Sequence record: PZ445420.1
From: a phage
Strand: one strand, 5' to 3'
DNA: 58,073 bases
This document shows positions 24,421 to 53,047 of this stretch, one piece after another (within the stretch, counting starts at the first letter, position 1; each line of letters opens with the position of its first letter). The notes below the pieces were generated by a model. That model was not told the DNA's origin, made no database searches, and saw only the letters and a list, made by a program, of their open reading frames with translations. Position numbers and translations under genes: made by a program.

Positions 24421-25374
24421 TTACTCGTCAAATAAATCCTGGAGACGTTCGTTGAACTTCCCATTGTGGTTAGCAAGAATCATAGCGTTGACCACACCAT
24501 ACGCCCATAAATTGTATGCAGCGCGTGATTCGTATATCGTTGAAAGTCGCTCGTATGTGAAACCTGACTCCTCTAAGTAGCGTAGAACGTTATTCTGTTC
24601 TACTTCTGAAAGATTACAGATATGTTGCCCTTGATAGTGACGTGATGGAGACTTTTCGGACACCTGCATTGGACCCCACTTAGGCGTCTCAATAGCACCG
24701 AACGCCGCAGATTGAATCCAGGAGGATGAGTCACAGGAGTACCACGGGTAACGCTCCATAAGTGGGCGGGACGTAATACCAAAGCCATGGACTTTGATCT
24801 TAGCTCGACCACTACCGTCTACAAGGTGTTTATCCCATACCCTGTCTAGCCATACCTGAAGTTGTTGTGTACTCGCTCCAACAAGACCACCGAGAGTGAT
24901 ATATTCATAATTTCGTACATAATGGTCCAGGTATTCAAAAGGTTCACCCGCGTGGAAGCATGGTAAAGGTCTTACACCTCTGGCTTCCATCTCTTCCTGG
25001 TTACGCCATGTTTGAAGTGGATCACCGATACCATCGAGTACGGACGCCATAAGTGAACCATCCTCTACACGAATGATATCTATGTTTCGTTGGATGTAAT
25101 CACAGTATTCTTTAACTGATAACGTAACTCCCAAAGTGTAAGCTGAGAACGCTCCGGAGTCGAGGAATATCTTGGCCCCATCGGCACGCATGGCATCAAC
25201 ATATGATTGCTTTCCAACGTAATGGTAGGACTCAAGAATGTTTGGAATATTCTCGACAACACGTTTTTCTTGTTCGTTGAGTTTGACATAGCGGTTCATT
25301 CCTGGTTTATAGCTGTTCGTATATACGGCAGCCATATAAATCTGAAAGGTATAGTCGATATCTTGTCTGTGCAT
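24421..25374 (-). CDS. dpdA: DpdA-like 7-deazaguanine DNA transglycosylase (TGT-superfamily candidate)
   Basis: 317 aa; FLDSGAFS segment resembles TGT catalytic DSGGFQ region; immediately downstream of folE/queD/queC/queE genes. Confidence 0.45.
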   Translation of the reverse strand: MHRQDIDYTFQIYMAAVYTNSYKPGMNRYVKLNEQEKRVVENIPNILESYHYVGKQSYVDAMRADGAKIFLDSGAFSAYTLGVTLSVKEYCDYIQRNIDIIRVEDGSLMASVLDGIGDPLQTWRNQEEMEARGVRPLPCFHAGEPFEYLDHYVRNYEYITLGGLVGASTQQLQVWLDRVWDKHLVDGSGRAKIKVHGFGITSRPLMERYPWYSCDSSSWIQSAAFGAIETPKWGPMQVSEKSPSRHYQGQHICNLSEVEQNNVLRYLEESGFTYERLSTIYESRAAYNLWAYGVVNAMILANHNGKFNERLQDLFDE

Positions 25375-27521: not shown

Positions 27522-28937
27522 TTACTGTTCATCCAGATAGGTAATTACCTCTGGCGCACCATTAATACTAAATGCAGTCCGGCGCATCATGCAAGGGCCA
27601 CAAGTACCGCAATGCAAATCCCCGTTACGGTAACAGCTCCAGGTGTGCTCCAACGGGGCCCCTAAACGCAGACCTGTAGCGACAATTTCGTGCTTCATTA
27701 AGTTACCTACTGGCATAAGCACTTCAACGCGCTTACCGTCGCCTACAGCGAACGGTAACACTTGATTAAAGCGATTAATGAACTCAGGCTCATTGTCGGG
27801 GTAGGCTCCAGCTTCTTCTAGGTTGTTACCAAGAACAATATAGTCGAAACCGTTAGCTTCTGCGTATGCAGTAGCAACAGAAAGCATCACAAGGTTACGA
27901 GCTGGAACCCATTCATGCGCGAACTCAGCGCCTTCTTCACCGCCAGCAATTGTAGCATCTTGATCAAATAATGGGCTATCTTTCTTATCGTAGATCGGAA
28001 TTGGAAATTCAATTAATGGAACCCCCATCACCTCCGCAATCTTACGAATAGCGTACAGCTCATTAGTTTCTGCACGACAACCATATTGGAAGTTAATCAG
28101 AGTAACATCTAGACCATTGGACTTACATATCTGAGCTGCTACTGTGCTGTCCATACCACCACTGGCGACAACTAACGCACGTTGAGTCTGCTTATTTGGA
28201 ATAAGATCAACTTCATTGCATACATCAGTCGATGTGACCACATTACACGAATAAGGCTTCAGCATCTGCTTAATAGCACGGGTTGGTAGCATGTCTTCCT
28301 GGCTGGCGAAATACATACCAGTATCAGTCTTACCAATCCAGATTGGACGGTAATTACATGCTGCAAACACATACCCAGGAAGTGAATCGTGCGTTGCAAG
28401 GATTGCGTAACTTCCTTTCAACTTGCGAATAACTTCATGAAATACGTTATAAAGGTAATCTGAATCAGACAGACACGTTTCATCCGCTGAAAGTGTGCAT
28501 TCCGCTAACTGTTCAACAATCGCAGCACTATCAATTTTAGTCTGTAGTGCATAGGTACGAAGGTCTTTATCGTTCGCAATAGTACCGTTATGAACAATAG
28601 TCCAACCATCCATATGATACGGTTGCTGGTCCCACTCGTTCTTGTCAACGACCCACTCTGTAGTCGGTTCAGCACGAGCGTTACCAATCATTGTGAAGCT
28701 ACCAATAGCTCCAGCATGAGATACAATGCACCCAACTTTGACAGGACGTTCCAGTGATGTTTCCTTACCGACACTAACAATACGTTGCGGGTGCATACTG
28801 TGGTCACCATGCGTAAAGCGTACACCAAGACCATCACGACCACGCTTGATACTAGCTTTAATAAGATCACCAACATCGTTACGGATAATTTCACGTTCAG
28901 GTTGGCCATTAGTAATAACACCAAAGATGGAGCACAT
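27522..28937 (-). CDS. queC: glutamine amidotransferase (class II) fused to QueC-like 7-cyano-7-deazaguanine synthase (Gat-QueC)
   Basis: N-terminus MCSIFGV (Ntn class-II GATase, as in AsnB); C-terminal PP-loop SGGMDS and Cys cluster C...CGTCGPC typical of QueC. Confidence 0.75.
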   Translation of the reverse strand: MCSIFGVITNGQPEREIIRNDVGDLIKASIKRGRDGLGVRFTHGDHSMHPQRIVSVGKETSLERPVKVGCIVSHAGAIGSFTMIGNARAEPTTEWVVDKNEWDQQPYHMDGWTIVHNGTIANDKDLRTYALQTKIDSAAIVEQLAECTLSADETCLSDSDYLYNVFHEVIRKLKGSYAILATHDSLPGYVFAACNYRPIWIGKTDTGMYFASQEDMLPTRAIKQMLKPYSCNVVTSTDVCNEVDLIPNKQTQRALVVASGGMDSTVAAQICKSNGLDVTLINFQYGCRAETNELYAIRKIAEVMGVPLIEFPIPIYDKKDSPLFDQDATIAGGEEGAEFAHEWVPARNLVMLSVATAYAEANGFDYIVLGNNLEEAGAYPDNEPEFINRFNQVLPFAVGDGKRVEVLMPVGNLMKHEIVATGLRLGAPLEHTWSCYRNGDLHCGTCGPCMMRRTAFSINGAPEVITYLDEQ

Positions 28938-49038: not shown

Positions 49039-49659
49039 TCACGCTCCGAACTGATCAATGTATTCAATGAGTTCTTGCAATTCTTGCTGTAATTGCACAT
49101 TACCACTATTATTCGTCTGAAGTCTAACGAGGCGTTCCTTGATATGTGTAATGTGGTTAGCACCCACTCGACGCTTCTGTACATCACACCAGTGAACAAC
49201 ACCATCTTCAATATATGCACGACGCGCTTTACCACGCGGGTATCGCAACGGCCGAACTTCACACTTATCGTCCACCCACTTAAAGCCCAGGATCATAACA
49301 GCGTTACCTTCCGTATCAGGACACACGTCAAAACAACTGTTGAACCCTTTACTGCGCATGTACTTGTCGAGCGGAATCACACAATCCACCTCTAACAACC
49401 AGTACCCGAAGTAAATGTCAACAGTGAACATCATCCCCAGCATCGGAGCCGACCAGCACATATACATCCGCCCGTCATCCAACTTCTTGACCGCATTCGG
49501 CCGCAACACGAGGCCAGCCGCCTTCCACGCTTTGACCACATTACTTAGGCTGTCGTTATGCTGTTCTAATATGGCTACCGCTTTGGCGTACATTTCTTCG
49601 TCATAATCGAACATTTCCTGTACGTGTGCGTGCGTTATTTCAATATTACGATTCCGCAT
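49039..49659 (-). CDS. hypothetical protein, first gene of leftward block after non-coding region
   Basis: 206-aa ORF. Confidence 0.4.
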   Translation of the reverse strand: MRNRNIEITHAHVQEMFDYDEEMYAKAVAILEQHNDSLSNVVKAWKAAGLVLRPNAVKKLDDGRMYMCWSAPMLGMMFTVDIYFGYWLLEVDCVIPLDKYMRSKGFNSCFDVCPDTEGNAVMILGFKWVDDKCEVRPLRYPRGKARRAYIEDGVVHWCDVQKRRVGANHITHIKERLVRLQTNNSGNVQLQQELQELIEYIDQFGA

Positions 49660-49827
49660 AACCTCACCCTCGATAATAATAAATCGACTGATTTTGAAAT
49701 TCAGTTGCCAAGTTTTAATTTATGCGAAGTTTTTGCTATTTGCAATTGTGACATTTTGCGGTGTTTGTATGTGCAATGTTTTTGCTTTTGCAAAAATTAC
49801 AGCAGTCTGAAGGTGAGAAATTGTACA

Positions 49828-49966
49828 TTTATAAAGATCGGTGAAAAAATGCACAATTTATAAAGGCCCCGTAATACATAAAACGGCGAAGCGAAGTGTA
49901 TGAAAAATAAGGGAAAATTTTGAGGGTTTGGGGGAACGTGTGAATTTATAAATTTTATAAAGGGGT
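49828..49966. repeat. four copies of TTTATAAA(G) in AT-rich non-coding region
   Basis: TTTATAAAG at 49828, 49857 and 49955 plus TTTATAAA at 49945; adjacent GGGGTC x2 and CA-rich tract. Confidence 0.6.
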
Positions 49967-50611
49967 CTCGTAGGGGTCGTCAGTAGACAACTCAAAAACA
50001 AAAAATCTTTATACAATTTATATAAATACACACATACACACATTTTTTACCTTATTTTTCATGCACTTACCTCCTTTCATTTCGTATATTAAGCGTTAAT
50101 ACATGAGCAATATAACATATATTTGTTGCGCAACGACTGTGTGTTTTCTAACCAATCGAAAGATTGCTTTATATACGTCCGCGCGTCTAACACAAAAGAA
50201 AAGTAGATTGCAAGCGATTTTTGCTGAGGTAACTCTCGAAGTGAAAGCGATTTGCGAGTTTGAAATTTTGTAGCCCGAAAACGATTCTATTTTATGGTAT
50301 AAATGTCGGATTTTTCGGTGAAAGGTGGCTTTTCGGTGAGGTTGGGTGGCTGGGATCGGGGTAACGGGTAGCCCATAAAGCGAAAATAGCCGCGAAAACG
50401 GGGCACGCAGCGCGATTAAACGGTTGGATCGGTGCAAGGGTGGCGGTGAGGGGCGAAAATGCCGCAAAATCGCGTACAGGGAAGCAGGGAGCGGATCGCT
50501 GTAAGGGCGTATAAGGCGACTGAATTGGAGTCAATGGTAATGTACGGAAGAGGGATTCAGGTTCTTAGAGCGCGAATGGTGGAGTTACGGGTGAGGAATA
50601 TGTGGTCAGCA

Positions 50612-50635
50612 GGGTGGGGCGGGAGGTGGTGCGGG
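50612..50635 (+). other. G-quadruplex-capable motif (GGG-T-GGGG-C-GGG-N9-GGG) in purine-rich non-coding tract
   Basis: Direct reading; the + strand between about 50280 and 50640 is strongly G/A-rich. Confidence 0.3.
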
Positions 50636-50648
50636 TACAAAAACGAAA

Positions 50649-50675
50649 GCGCCCCGTTGGACTTCAACAGGGCGC
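50649..50675 (-). terminator. rho-independent terminator downstream of gene 50699..50956
   Basis: GCGCCC/GGGCGC stem with 15-nt loop; on minus strand followed by TTTCGTTTTTG. Confidence 0.45.
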
Positions 50676-50698
50676 GGATTGTAAAATGGTTTTAGAAG

Positions 50699-50956
50699 TT
50701 ATTTACAAGTTAATAATACCGCCCAGGTATTATCTGGAAGCGTACCAATTCCGCGGATTTTCAACTGGAGCGACTGGTGCTGCATGTTGTAGTTGTCTAG
50801 TAACTCCTGGGCCGCGGCAGCGGCGTTTGCTTCACTGTTGAGAGCGTAGTCGTTACTCGTTACCGCGCACATACCGAGGCCAACTGCTTTGAAGCGCAAA
50901 CCTTTGGATTGAGTCGGTGCGAGTGCTTTGACATGGATAGCTTGCATATTATTCAT
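50699..50956 (-). CDS. hypothetical protein
   Basis: 85-aa ORF. Confidence 0.35.
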   Translation of the reverse strand: MNNMQAIHVKALAPTQSKGLRFKAVGLGMCAVTSNDYALNSEANAAAAAQELLDNYNMQHQSLQLKIRGIGTLPDNTWAVLLTCK

Positions 50957-50976
50957 CTCCGTTACAATTTGAAAGG

Positions 50977-51234
50977 TTAGCAGTTTTTTAACAGGTTGAT
51001 GAAGCCCACCAGCGTGGACGCTGTTGCAACAAGGCGGCCCATAGTGTGTAGTTCCGCGTGAACTTTACCGTCGTCAAATACAGTTAAATAAACGTTAAGA
51101 CCATTGCAACGGACGCGATATTTGCGCGAGTTATTATTGAAAGTTTCTAATTCCGCAGTGATAGTCGCAAGGTTGGCTATACGTTTTCCAATAATGCGGC
51201 GAGTGATAGTGGACTGGTTTAATACTGTAGACAT
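50977..51234 (-). CDS. hypothetical protein, RIIGKR-motif family (paralog of 52137..52442)
   Basis: 85 aa; shares S-x-S-x-IT-[RK]-RIIGKR segment. Confidence 0.4.
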   Translation of the reverse strand: MSTVLNQSTITRRIIGKRIANLATITAELETFNNNSRKYRVRCNGLNVYLTVFDDGKVHAELHTMGRLVATASTLVGFINLLKNC

Positions 51235-51256
51235 AATAATTTCCTCAGTTAACTAT

Positions 51257-51295
51257 GCGGATTGCATATTATTGCCCACTGTTACTATGGGCAAT
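51257..51295. promoter_or_regulatory. conserved motif GCGGATTGC plus palindrome ATTGCCCA-N9-TGGGCAAT upstream of minus-strand gene
   Basis: Same architecture recurs at 52086-52120. Confidence 0.4.
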
Positions 51296-51316
51296 GTATA
51301 TGTCACTCAGCGATAA

Positions 51317-51535
51317 TTACTCCGGTAAAATTACAGTGACGTTAATATTTGCAATGCGAGCGCACTCGCGGAAACCTTTTACATAAGCATCCATTTCGTC
51401 ATAGGATGCGAATGTCACGTCCGGGACTGGTCCGTTGTTAATATTCACGCAATATTCGTGTTCATCCAGGTCAACCCAGCAATTCAGAACGATAGTTTCC
51501 ATATTATTTGCCCTCCGTATAATACAGACCCGCAA
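51317..51535 (-). CDS. hypothetical protein
   Basis: 72-aa ORF. Confidence 0.35.
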   Translation of the reverse strand: MRVCIIRRANNMETIVLNCWVDLDEHEYCVNINNGPVPDVTFASYDEMDAYVKGFRECARIANINVTVILPE

Positions 51536-51580
51536 CTATTGGAGCTCCGAACACCAAGAAAGCTAATAAATAGAACATAA

Positions 51581-52060
51581 TTAGTTACCACCTTTATTGT
51601 TGAGCCCGTTGAATTTACGCCATGCGTAGAATTCAATCGTTGCATTATTAATATTCCAACCATTAGCTTTCGCAAGGTCACGGACGTTACCAATAGTTGG
51701 CACACTATTAGGCAACATATTATCCAGGGCATTCCAAACGTCTGCGCATTTACCTTTAATTGGGCGGCGGACCCCGTTGCGCGTTTCGCTGCGCGTTTTA
51801 CCTTTGACGGGAGCGACCGGAGCTGGTTGTGTGGTCACTTCCACGACAGTCGCTTTATCAGCTTCAACCAGATCGTTAGCTGCCTTATTAACTGCGCTTT
51901 CGCTGAACCAGTAGCGGCCACCGTCTTCCAGCGGCTCCTGGTGAATAAAGCTATTTGCTGTCGCTGTGTCTACATCCAGAACCTTTTTCAAGGCACGGCG
52001 AGCGTTAGACATATTGGTGAAAAAGCGAGCATCTTTTGCTACGCGAGTGATAGTAACCAT
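51581..52060 (-). CDS. hypothetical protein (start at second ATG; GGAGA 7 nt upstream)
   Basis: about 159 aa; ORF track gives 51581..52075. Confidence 0.4.
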   Translation of the reverse strand: MVTITRVAKDARFFTNMSNARRALKKVLDVDTATANSFIHQEPLEDGGRYWFSESAVNKAANDLVEADKATVVEVTTQPAPVAPVKGKTRSETRNGVRRPIKGKCADVWNALDNMLPNSVPTIGNVRDLAKANGWNINNATIEFYAWRKFNGLNNKGGN

Positions 52061-52085
52061 TGTGAATATCTCCATGTTGTTCTAG

Positions 52086-52120
52086 CGGATTGCTAGTGGG
52101 AGCCCACTGTGACAATGGGC
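52086..52120. promoter_or_regulatory. second copy of GCGGATTGC plus GCCCA-N9-TGGGC palindrome
   Basis: GCGGATTGC 52086-52094; GCCCACTGTGACAATGGGC 52102-52120; overlapping AGTGGG/CCCACT hairpin. Confidence 0.4.
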
Positions 52121-52136
52121 AACCATTAGCACGCTA

Positions 52137-52442
52137 TTATTGTTGAATAGCTTTAGCTATCATTGTAATGAAGCAGAACACAGACCAAAGGCTATTCGCT
52201 TGGCATACTGGGCGACCATACATTACGCTATAAGAGCTGACATTGCCGTCCTCGTTAATGCGAATATATAACGCGGTGCTGGAATATTTTTCGTTGCCCG
52301 GGAGCATTACCAGATACTCGTCGAAATCCCAATCCCCGTCAACTTTTTCCGCAGTAAGGCCCAGTTGGTGCAGGCGCTTGCCAATAATGCGCTTAGTAAT
52401 TTGAGATTGGGACATGGAACGCGGTAAGTAGATAATGGACAT
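52137..52442 (-). CDS. hypothetical protein, RIIGKR-motif family (paralog of 50977..51234)
   Basis: 101 aa from internal ATG (MSIIYLP) with GGAGA RBS; ORF track extends to 52559. Confidence 0.4.
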   Translation of the reverse strand: MSIIYLPRSMSQSQITKRIIGKRLHQLGLTAEKVDGDWDFDEYLVMLPGNEKYSSTALYIRINEDGNVSSYSVMYGRPVCQANSLWSVFCFITMIAKAIQQ

Positions 52443-52630
52443 AATGCAATCTCCCTTCGGGTGAGGCGGGCGCGGAACCCGTGTCCCGCTTAAAAACCCC
52501 CTTAACCCTACGCAGTTATAGTATGACAACAGGGTATCAGATGCAACTATTATCTGCATTATTTTAGAACTTTTTTAGTTGTGTTTCATAATAATAACAT
52601 CCGGGACTATACGGTAGATGGTGTGCCGGA

Positions 52631-52696
52631 AATACCAGGTAGCGCGAGCGTGCTGAAAATACCAGGTAACAGCACGCGCCGAACATACCAGGTAGC
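52631..52696. repeat. three direct repeats ATACCAGGTA(A/G)C spaced 26-28 bp
   Basis: Copies at about 52631, 52659, 52685 in non-coding region. Confidence 0.6.
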
Positions 52697-52825
52697 ACAT
52701 ACATAGACAGCACATAGTGGGCAGGTGGATAGTAACAGATGCAATTATACTGGACAGTACAGTATAGTCATGTAATAGATAGCACACTAATCAAATAAAA
52801 AATAATAACGCGTGTAACAATAAAC

Positions 52826-52900
52826 AACGTTATAGTAGAGCGCGCAACAGTCACATGACGTAACAATCACCTCACTGACGATCACGGGACGTTATAGTAA
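52826..52900. repeat. two direct repeats ACGTTATAGTA about 61 bp apart
   Basis: Direct reading of non-coding region. Confidence 0.45.
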
Positions 52901-53047
52901 CGCCGCGGGGCGGCTCTTAGATCTCTGCCAAGGATTCATCGTTTGTAGATTATCTCGTCACTAGACACTTTATATCCTCACCTCACCTGTCCTATATTGT
53001 TCGTATAAAGTTAATTCCGTATGTAAATACTCGAGAGGAGATCTGTT

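Follow-up and report, generated by a model that had tools for sequence, protein, structure and literature searches.

What occupies the gap between genes at positions 49660-50698 of the phage record PZ445420.1? The window analysed here is the whole of this record, a complete genome of 58,073 nucleotides that is collapsed and arbitrarily opened, with the gene for the large terminase (TerL) placed first. The phage is a 9g-like coliphage in the genus Nonagvirus, subfamily Queuovirinae. All 17 records matched by the interval and its neighbouring sequence are Nonagvirus; identity over the interval is 88-97%, highest for phage FritzHoffmann (97%). Annotation of these records is inconsistent, the interval being left empty in some and assigned different small open reading frames (ORFs) in others. 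An earlier reading made from the letters of the window (the sequence-only reading) had raised three possibilities: an origin of replication, a cluster of early promoters or a structured non-coding RNA. We conclude with good confidence that an exact direct terminal repeat (DTR) of ~3 kb has its left boundary within the interval, with packaged DNA beginning at 49954 and 2963 bp repeated at the right end. This dominant identity of the locus is absent from the earlier suggestions.

The interval is non-coding, as the sequence-only reading had stated. None of its ORFs of at least 55 amino acids is intact in more than 9 of the 17 relatives; these frames are broken in most relatives and 1-nt indels are scattered through the interval, and a coding region was rejected on these grounds. 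Alignments and values of nucleotide diversity (pi) given below refer to 18 genomes, the window genome and its 17 relatives.

Position of the genome ends

Three relatives locate the ends. In the records of phages HdSG1 and HdK1 the ends were set from abrupt read ends and the sequences were deposited with terminal duplications, the two copies being identical within each record (100%) over 3363 bp in HdSG1 and 3367 bp in HdK1. The repeat starts with TTTATAAAGGGGTC; position 1 of the HdSG1 record corresponds to window position 49954 and position 1 of the HdK1 record to 49957. Both repeats finish with GGCGGCTC, at window position 52916. For phage 9g, a terminase cut was placed at nt 28243 by run-off sequencing and restriction digests, after two SRYCRCGGGRCG-core repeats (Tsai et al. 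2017, Sci Rep; PMC5567051), and this is the same nucleotide at which the HdSG1 and HdK1 repeats finish. In 9g the left end corresponds to nt 25160, 3084 bp from the cut, and an exact repeat of 3084 bp fits the redundancy of 3.0-3.2 kb estimated in that study (PMC5567051).

Mapped from HdSG1, HdK1 and 9g, the DTR of the window extends over 49954-52916 (2963 bp) and is present as one collapsed copy. The left physical end of packaged DNA falls at 49953/49954, with the cut directly 5' of the palindromic octamer TTTATAAA. The right boundary lies outside the interval, at 52880-52916 on the plus strand. Here two SRYCRCGGGRCG-core repeats (52880 and 52901), the only matches to this pattern in the window genome, precede a cut at 52916/52917, and the site equals the published 9g 'pac' site. 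Virion DNA would run from 49954 to a second repeat copy ending at 52916. Positions 49954-50698 would then be the first 745 bp of the virion chromosome, and 49660-49953 would form the last unique sequence before the right-hand repeat copy, carrying the promoter and leader of the next leftward operon of replication genes.

Repeat lengths of 3084, 3363 and 3367 bp in 9g, HdSG1 and HdK1 were compared with would-be packaged lengths of 59.8, 63.6 and 64.1 kb. The differences in repeat length follow indels within the repeat, not genome length. That the repeat stays at 3.1-3.4 kb while packaged length would span 59.8-64.1 kb argues that fixed sites rather than a headful measure set the redundancy. Three marks of a DTR were observed: identical sequence at both chromosome ends, tested in the relatives HdSG1 and HdK1; ends at the same position across independent isolates and studies (49954/49957 on the left, and 52916 equal to nt 28243 on the right); and a redundancy length determined by sites and not by capsid capacity.

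Packaging mode

The authors of the 9g study read their data differently, as packaging from a pac site by the headful mechanism with permutation, the run-off results reflecting a mixture of cut and uncut pac sequences (PMC5567051). Applied to the window, this would make the cut at 52916 the only specific one, and the left end an imprecise headful cut ~3 kb past pac. Run-off signal was seen in 33-50% of templates, and the DraI digest contained a '~8.4 kb doublet', no 5.2-kb band and an uncut fragment of 13,517 bp (PMC5567051). Taking the DraI sites of 9g with ends at 28243 and 25160, we predicted fragments of 8363 and 8238 bp together with the uncut fragment of 13,517 bp. Two fixed ends thus reproduce both the reported doublet and the absence of the 5.2-kb band. 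The partial run-off signal is likewise accounted for, since two repeat copies per molecule predict such a ratio, including the 50% division between cut and uncut templates.

A headful mechanism makes one specific cut, at initiation, and leaves far ends that are imprecise and permuted. The left end was instead discrete: HdSG1 and HdK1 start at one shared motif, no more than 3 nt apart, although their genome lengths differ, and the DraI doublet of 9g is itself discrete and fits an end at nt 25160. The dependence of redundancy on indels inside the repeat, and not on genome length, also argues against a headful measure. We therefore regard pac-headful packaging as very improbable and favour a second fixed end inside the interval. 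The 9g 'pac' site and the locus described here belong to the same system, the published cut being the right boundary of the repeat whose left boundary is in the interval. They differ in that the 9g site lies 2963 bp away, outside the interval, and that its published reading is headful with a permuted redundancy of ~3 kb. The exact-repeat reading corrects this interpretation for 9g.

Sequence of the left boundary

Four copies of the octamer TTTATAAA cluster at 49828-49962, starting at 49828, 49857, 49945 and 49954; the last forms the first 8 nt of virion DNA. They represent four of the five copies in the 58-kb genome, with 0.02 expected in the region. The sequence-only reading had listed four TTTATAAA(G) elements; all four octamers are present, but the G follows only three of them, the 49945 copy being followed by T. 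This copy is also not conserved and reads TTTATATTA in most relatives. The GGGGTC direct repeat noted earlier was located at 49962-49983 and is unique within the genome, and the CA-rich tract was found to be a 2.2-copy array of ATACACAC at 50026-50043. Tandem repeats in the interval comprised trivial short arrays only.

Conservation follows the proposed ends. The first 130 bp of virion DNA (49954-50083) form a conserved terminal block that includes the GGGGTC repeat, A-tracts, the CA repeat and the right arm of a palindrome, at a GC content of 31%. Its pi was 0.035, compared with 0.10 and 0.17 in the flanking genes, and pi of the last 57 bp of the repeat (52860-52916) was 0.010. These two segments are the most conserved parts of the repeat, and positions 49920-49953, just outside the left boundary, are variable.

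The palindrome is imperfect, covers ~200 bp across the DTR boundary (49882-50083) and is centred near 49981-49985. Its outer arms (49894-49917 and 50045-50068) are 24 nt long and 92% complementary, and its inner, AT-rich arms lie at about 49938-49962 and 50007-50031. Folding was far more stable than that of shuffled sequences, with z-scores of -7.4 for the minus-strand RNA, -5.5 for the plus-strand RNA and -4.7 for DNA. Hairpin potential was retained in all 17 relatives (alifold z = -4.8 and -6.6). Such stability might be taken to indicate a structured non-coding RNA, formed by the long hairpin or by the G-rich tract discussed below. However, the palindrome folds equally on both strands, which points to behaviour at the DNA level. 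In the absence of compensatory changes (0 of 59 pairs), pairing of the arms and a pair of protein-binding sites are indistinguishable.

Several further elements surround the two boundaries. The 13-mer TCGTCASTAGACA occurs exactly twice in the genome, at 49977-49989 and 52955-52967, on the same strand and conserved in relatives. One copy lies 24 bp to the right of the left cut and the other 39 bp to the right of the right cut, and a match of this kind is not unusual by the local-alignment null. An inverted TCGTCAGT at 52874-52881 places the right cut nearly central between two copies. TCGTCASTAGACA is kept as a lead to a shared boundary recognition sequence, not as evidence for one. Repeats of the form GGATCG... 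were considered for resemblance to the pac core, and this similarity was not supported.

A strong minus-strand Shine-Dalgarno site (50074-50070) together with an ATG at 50063 (AAAGGAGGTAAGTGCATG) lies within the right palindrome arm, and nearly all relatives keep it. The reading frame that follows has 14 amino acids here and 35-86 in relatives, the difference being caused by a 1-nt indel in a T-run. In many relatives it crosses the repeat boundary, so that the left-end copy would have no stop codon. With a length varying from 14 to 86 amino acids through a single-nucleotide indel, this mini-ORF was rejected as a conserved protein.

Beside the published headful interpretation, several points weigh against an exact repeat with its left boundary in the interval. 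The end positions in this phage are transferred by homology from three relatives. Assemblies from PacBio reads may carry artefactual end overlaps, an objection that is hard to sustain because two phages agree with an independent study based on Sanger sequencing and restriction digests. In the literature searched, no left genome end is described for Nonagvirus, although two GenBank records imply one. The ends of phage ECP2304, the sister-genus case discussed below, are taken from its deposited record. Sequence similarity between the left and right boundaries is at chance (the best local alignment scores 21, where the null gives 19 +/- 2.6), which leaves a single recognition element undemonstrated. 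No compensatory change was found among the 59 palindrome pairs, where variation is too low to inform either way. Finally, the roles given below to the promoters and the G-rich tract are drawn from sequence alone.

Terminator and G-rich tract

The leftward early operon carried in the repeat has an intrinsic terminator at 50649-50675 (minus strand), an 11-bp stem with 8 GC pairs followed by TTTCGTTTTT, 24 nt past the stop of the gene at 50956-50699. It is conserved in 17 of the 18 genomes, all but JenP1, and is annotated as a terminator in HdSG1, HdK1 and SP8.

To its left lies a tract at 50281-50640 that is rich in G and purines on the plus strand, and C-rich and G-poor in a minus-strand transcript. 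It contains 142 G and 52 C, giving a GC skew of +0.464, and has a purine fraction of 0.644. Both values are genome-wide maxima for 360-nt windows (mean skew -0.01, standard deviation 0.13), in keeping with the G/A-rich composition described in the sequence-only reading. The recurring GGTG and GGTGAGG motifs noted there were borne out as well: GGTG occurs 12 times against 1.5 expected, and three of the six genomic copies of GGTGAGG fall in the tract, as do CGGTGA and GCGAAAA motifs. The strand skew is retained in 17 of 17 relatives (+0.33 to +0.56). Neither GCTGGTGG (Chi) nor its complement is present in the tract.

The sequence GGATCGNNGYAA occurs at 50353, 50426 and 50493 on the plus strand, 73 and 67 bp apart, and nowhere else in the genome. 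Its second and third copies read GGATCRNTGTAAGGG in most relatives, and each copy holds a GATC (Dam) site.

Composition of the minus-strand RNA from 50640 to 50281 (39% C, 14% G, untranslated) matches that of a Rho utilization (rut) zone, for which at least 80 nt of untranslated, C-rich, G-poor and weakly structured RNA is taken as the mark. Lying just past the intrinsic terminator, this RNA could plausibly act as a Rho-loading back-up terminator. The whole interval might then be a transcriptional insulator only, in which the rut zone backs the intrinsic terminator, the left part supplies the promoter of the next operon and the position of the terminus is incidental. The C-rich RNA does start directly after the terminator (50675-50649) and is not significantly structured (z = -1.8); its strand bias is conserved in the 17 relatives and in the sister genus Seuratvirus, and a conserved candidate promoter lies on the minus strand at 49856-49828. 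Insulation by itself leaves unexplained the extreme conservation of 49954-50083, the palindrome and the TTTATAAA cluster, as well as the invariance of a plus-strand promoter block described below. Plus-strand homing-endonuclease genes in JenP1 and, probably, STP-SP5 further suggest transcription in the opposite direction. We consider an insulator alone rather unlikely, though it is the strongest of the competing explanations.

A structured RNA in the tract found less support. Folding did not differ from shuffled controls on the plus strand (z = 0.08), and the z-score of -1.8 on the minus strand derives mostly from the terminator hairpin. Alignment folding gave z = -1.3 and -0.2, and no conserved RNA structure was found in the tract. 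No Rfam family reached threshold and no tRNA was found in the interval; a weak match to a miRNA-precursor model scored 26 bits (E = 0.04), below the gathering score of 119, and is due only to the shape of the long hairpin. The G-quadruplex-capable run proposed at 50612-50635 fits a relaxed motif definition with one 9-nt loop, but is not canonical and occurs in one of the 18 genomes, this one. A canonical motif at 50344-50368 is found in 4 of 18. A conserved G-quadruplex was rejected on these counts. The structured non-coding RNA, rejected on the tract z-score of 0.08, the lack of an Rfam family, and the palindrome's 0 of 59 compensatory pairs and folding on both strands, retains, like any G-quadruplex element, a probability close to negligible.

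Promoters and the spacer

A candidate sigma-70 promoter can be read on the minus strand, with a -35 element TTGTGC at 49856-49851, a 17-nt spacer and a -10 element TATAAA at 49833-49828. It is conserved (pi 0.01 at 49840-49859), and a promoter scan returned an overlapping candidate. It is likely to be the promoter of the next leftward operon, and the unique-side spacer 49660-49953 (minus strand) would hold this promoter and the 5' leader, as judged from sequence and conservation.

On the plus strand, an extended -10 element, TGGTATAAA, at 50295-50303 faces rightward into the repeat, ~345 bp from the left end. It lies in a block (50280-50299) that is invariant among the 18 genomes (pi 0.0). We propose that the tract is an untranslated zone where two transcription units converge, downstream of this element. 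Its composition would also fit the G-rich transcript or non-template strand of a rightward promoter. The early promoter cluster of the sequence-only reading was thus upheld in part: two conserved promoter-like elements are present, one on each strand, but nine promoter-like sites in the interval against 5.0 +/- 2.2 expected is not a significant enrichment.

These elements bear on the suggestion of a replication origin. The AT-rich palindrome could unwind or form hairpins, and transcription from the rightward promoter with a G-rich non-template strand could form an R-loop that primes the leading strand, as at origins of the ColE1 and T4 type. The genome's most G-skewed 360 nt come directly after the invariant extended -10 at 50295-50303, the block at 49954-50083 has a GC content of 31%, and the tract holds three copies of the unique repeat GGATCGNNGYAA. 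The same order of promoter and G-skew recurs in Seuratvirus without sequence similarity, and cumulative GC skew reaches its minimum at ~50,000. That minimum, however, is explained by gene orientation together with the tract itself, and the interval contains no DnaA boxes, IHF sites or classical iteron array. Phage JenP1 is viable with an HNH gene in place of the right half of the tract, and experimental origin data for the group are absent from the literature searched. An origin is therefore unlikely, markedly more so than insulation, although it could coexist with a terminus function.

The JenP1 insertion (locus L004, 2587-3141) is a 184-amino-acid HNH homing-endonuclease gene on the plus strand, opposite to all its neighbours, which replaces ~50470-50690 including the terminator. 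The right half of the G-rich tract is consequently dispensable, and plus-strand transcription becomes plausible. In Salmonella phage STP-SP5 (Seuratvirus; locus L067, 1173-1649), a 158-amino-acid ORF on the opposite strand occupies the analogous place and probably also encodes a homing endonuclease.

Between the terminal block and the tract lies a hypervariable spacer (50100-50180), with three unrelated alleles among the 18 genomes and a pi of 0.25-0.44, flanked by highly conserved DNA. The spacer appears to be unconstrained, and its alleles suggest recombinational replacement rather than point divergence.

Proposed mechanism

With a fixed end at 49954, each concatemer junction would hold a single copy of the repeat. 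Both repeat boundaries would serve as fixed cleavage sites for terminase, acting by itself or with a helper, and strand-displacement synthesis, as in Watson/T7-type models, would duplicate the stretch between the cuts to give a copy at both ends. Likely signals for recognition or processing of the left end are the TTTATAAA cluster, the GGGGTC repeat, the conserved 130-bp block and the 24-bp inverted arms flanking the cut.

A more speculative possibility is that the palindrome, the rightward promoter and the G-rich, R-loop-prone transcript act as one combined module for end processing and replication that duplicates the 3-kb repeat. Copying of the repeat would then depend on a hairpin or cruciform forming at the boundary and on transcription-primed synthesis that starts at the left end. 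The layout of this module, not its sequence, is conserved between Nonagvirus and Seuratvirus. We consider such a module improbable, slightly more so than a replication origin; if real, it would constitute a way of making long exact repeats that is not known to have been elucidated in siphoviruses.

Neighbouring genes and implications

Genes neighbouring the interval are all on the minus strand. To the right, positions 52559-50699 hold a block of small genes to which no function is assigned. Two of these, at 50977-51234 and 52137-52559, belong to phrog_13865, a PHROG family also lacking an assigned function, and are paralogous early genes. To the left, the next leftward operon opens with a gene for a 206-amino-acid protein (49659-49039), and its onward genes reach the primase-helicase. 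Matches to the 206-amino-acid protein were restricted to the genus. In HdK1 (locus L018, 2108-2884), the homologues of 49039-49659 and the adjacent gene carry a different annotation, that of a fused or split gene. A tblastn search of HdK1 with the 206-amino-acid protein returned an alignment in four pieces, which may reflect a frameshift or sequencing error.

In the right part of the repeat, three direct copies of ATACCAGGTARC lie at 52632-52696 with 26-27 bp spacing, in a divergent non-coding region. They are unique in the genome (0.32 expected). An inverted repeat, GCGTGCTG / CAGCACGC, surrounds the middle copy, and phage IMG11 lacks part of the array, which resembles an iteron or operator array.

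Deposited Nonagvirus and Seuratvirus genomes are mostly collapsed and arbitrarily opened, and the ends placed here fix the true chromosome, ~61.0 kb for this phage. They also identify a 2.9-kb block of small genes without assigned function as a terminally duplicated early module. When these restriction-resistant, deazaguanine-modified phages are engineered, genome rebooting or assembly has to preserve the ends along with the associated cis signals. The TTTATAAA terminus, the GGGGTC repeat, the 24-bp inverted arms and the pac repeats provide defined cis elements for the study of long exact repeats.

Comparison with related and known systems

Homologues of the interval itself are confined to close relatives: low-stringency blastn returned Nonagvirus only, and a 17-mer scan of viral and metagenome contigs added five more close relatives and chance matches. 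Seuratvirus shares no nucleotide similarity with the Nonagvirus interval and has the same layout, with a gene-free gap of 575-829 bp at the syntenic place. The record of Seuratvirus phage ECP2304 (OR880647.1; loci L022 and L023) shows an exact terminal repeat of 3695 bp, with its left end inside this gap. The end begins with a small palindrome, GAATAATTTATTC, and inverted repeats straddle it; at the right junction, GATCATCAGGGTAC...CCCGAGGGCCCTT precedes the cut and resembles the Nonagvirus pac repeats. The gap shows positive GC skew on the plus strand, and an invariant rightward extended -10 element, TGGTATTAT, occupies the place analogous to TGGTATAAA. ECP2304 differs in that its repeat extends further right, into three rightward genes. 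In a third Queuovirinae lineage, Pseudomonas phage iggy has a shorter DTR of 1091 bp, determined with Nanopore reads.

T5 and SPO1 have long terminal repeats that hold pre-early or host-takeover genes. The Nonagvirus repeat resembles that of T5 (and SPO1) in being an exact, kilobase-scale repeat full of small early genes and bounded by non-coding DNA rich in repeats and palindromes. It differs in that the T5 repeat is ~10 kb long and linked to two-step DNA transfer, and no homology to T5 was found. By analogy, the interval could be an injection-stop or first-step-transfer signal, non-coding DNA at the inner repeat edge that pauses entry until the early genes of the repeat have been expressed. 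The shared architecture is what speaks for such a signal, which presupposes that the right end enters first, since only then would the interval mark the inner edge of the repeat. We consider this quite unlikely, only marginally less so than headful packaging.

A further parallel for a left DTR boundary is with T7 and T3, where the ends are also fixed, an identical repeat is present at both ends and the repeat must be duplicated during cutting. T7 likewise has rightward promoters a few hundred bp from its left end. The two systems differ in several respects: the T7 repeat is non-coding and 160 bp long, whereas that of Nonagvirus covers ~3 kb and a whole early operon; Nonagvirus is a siphovirus without a phage RNA polymerase; and none of the T7 sequence signals is present. 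According to the summary in PMC4281155, models of the T7 type invoke staggered nicks with strand displacement, and a hairpin intermediate was observed in T7. Set beside these systems, a phage genome end such as the one at 49954 is a known and ordinary kind of element rather than a new system.

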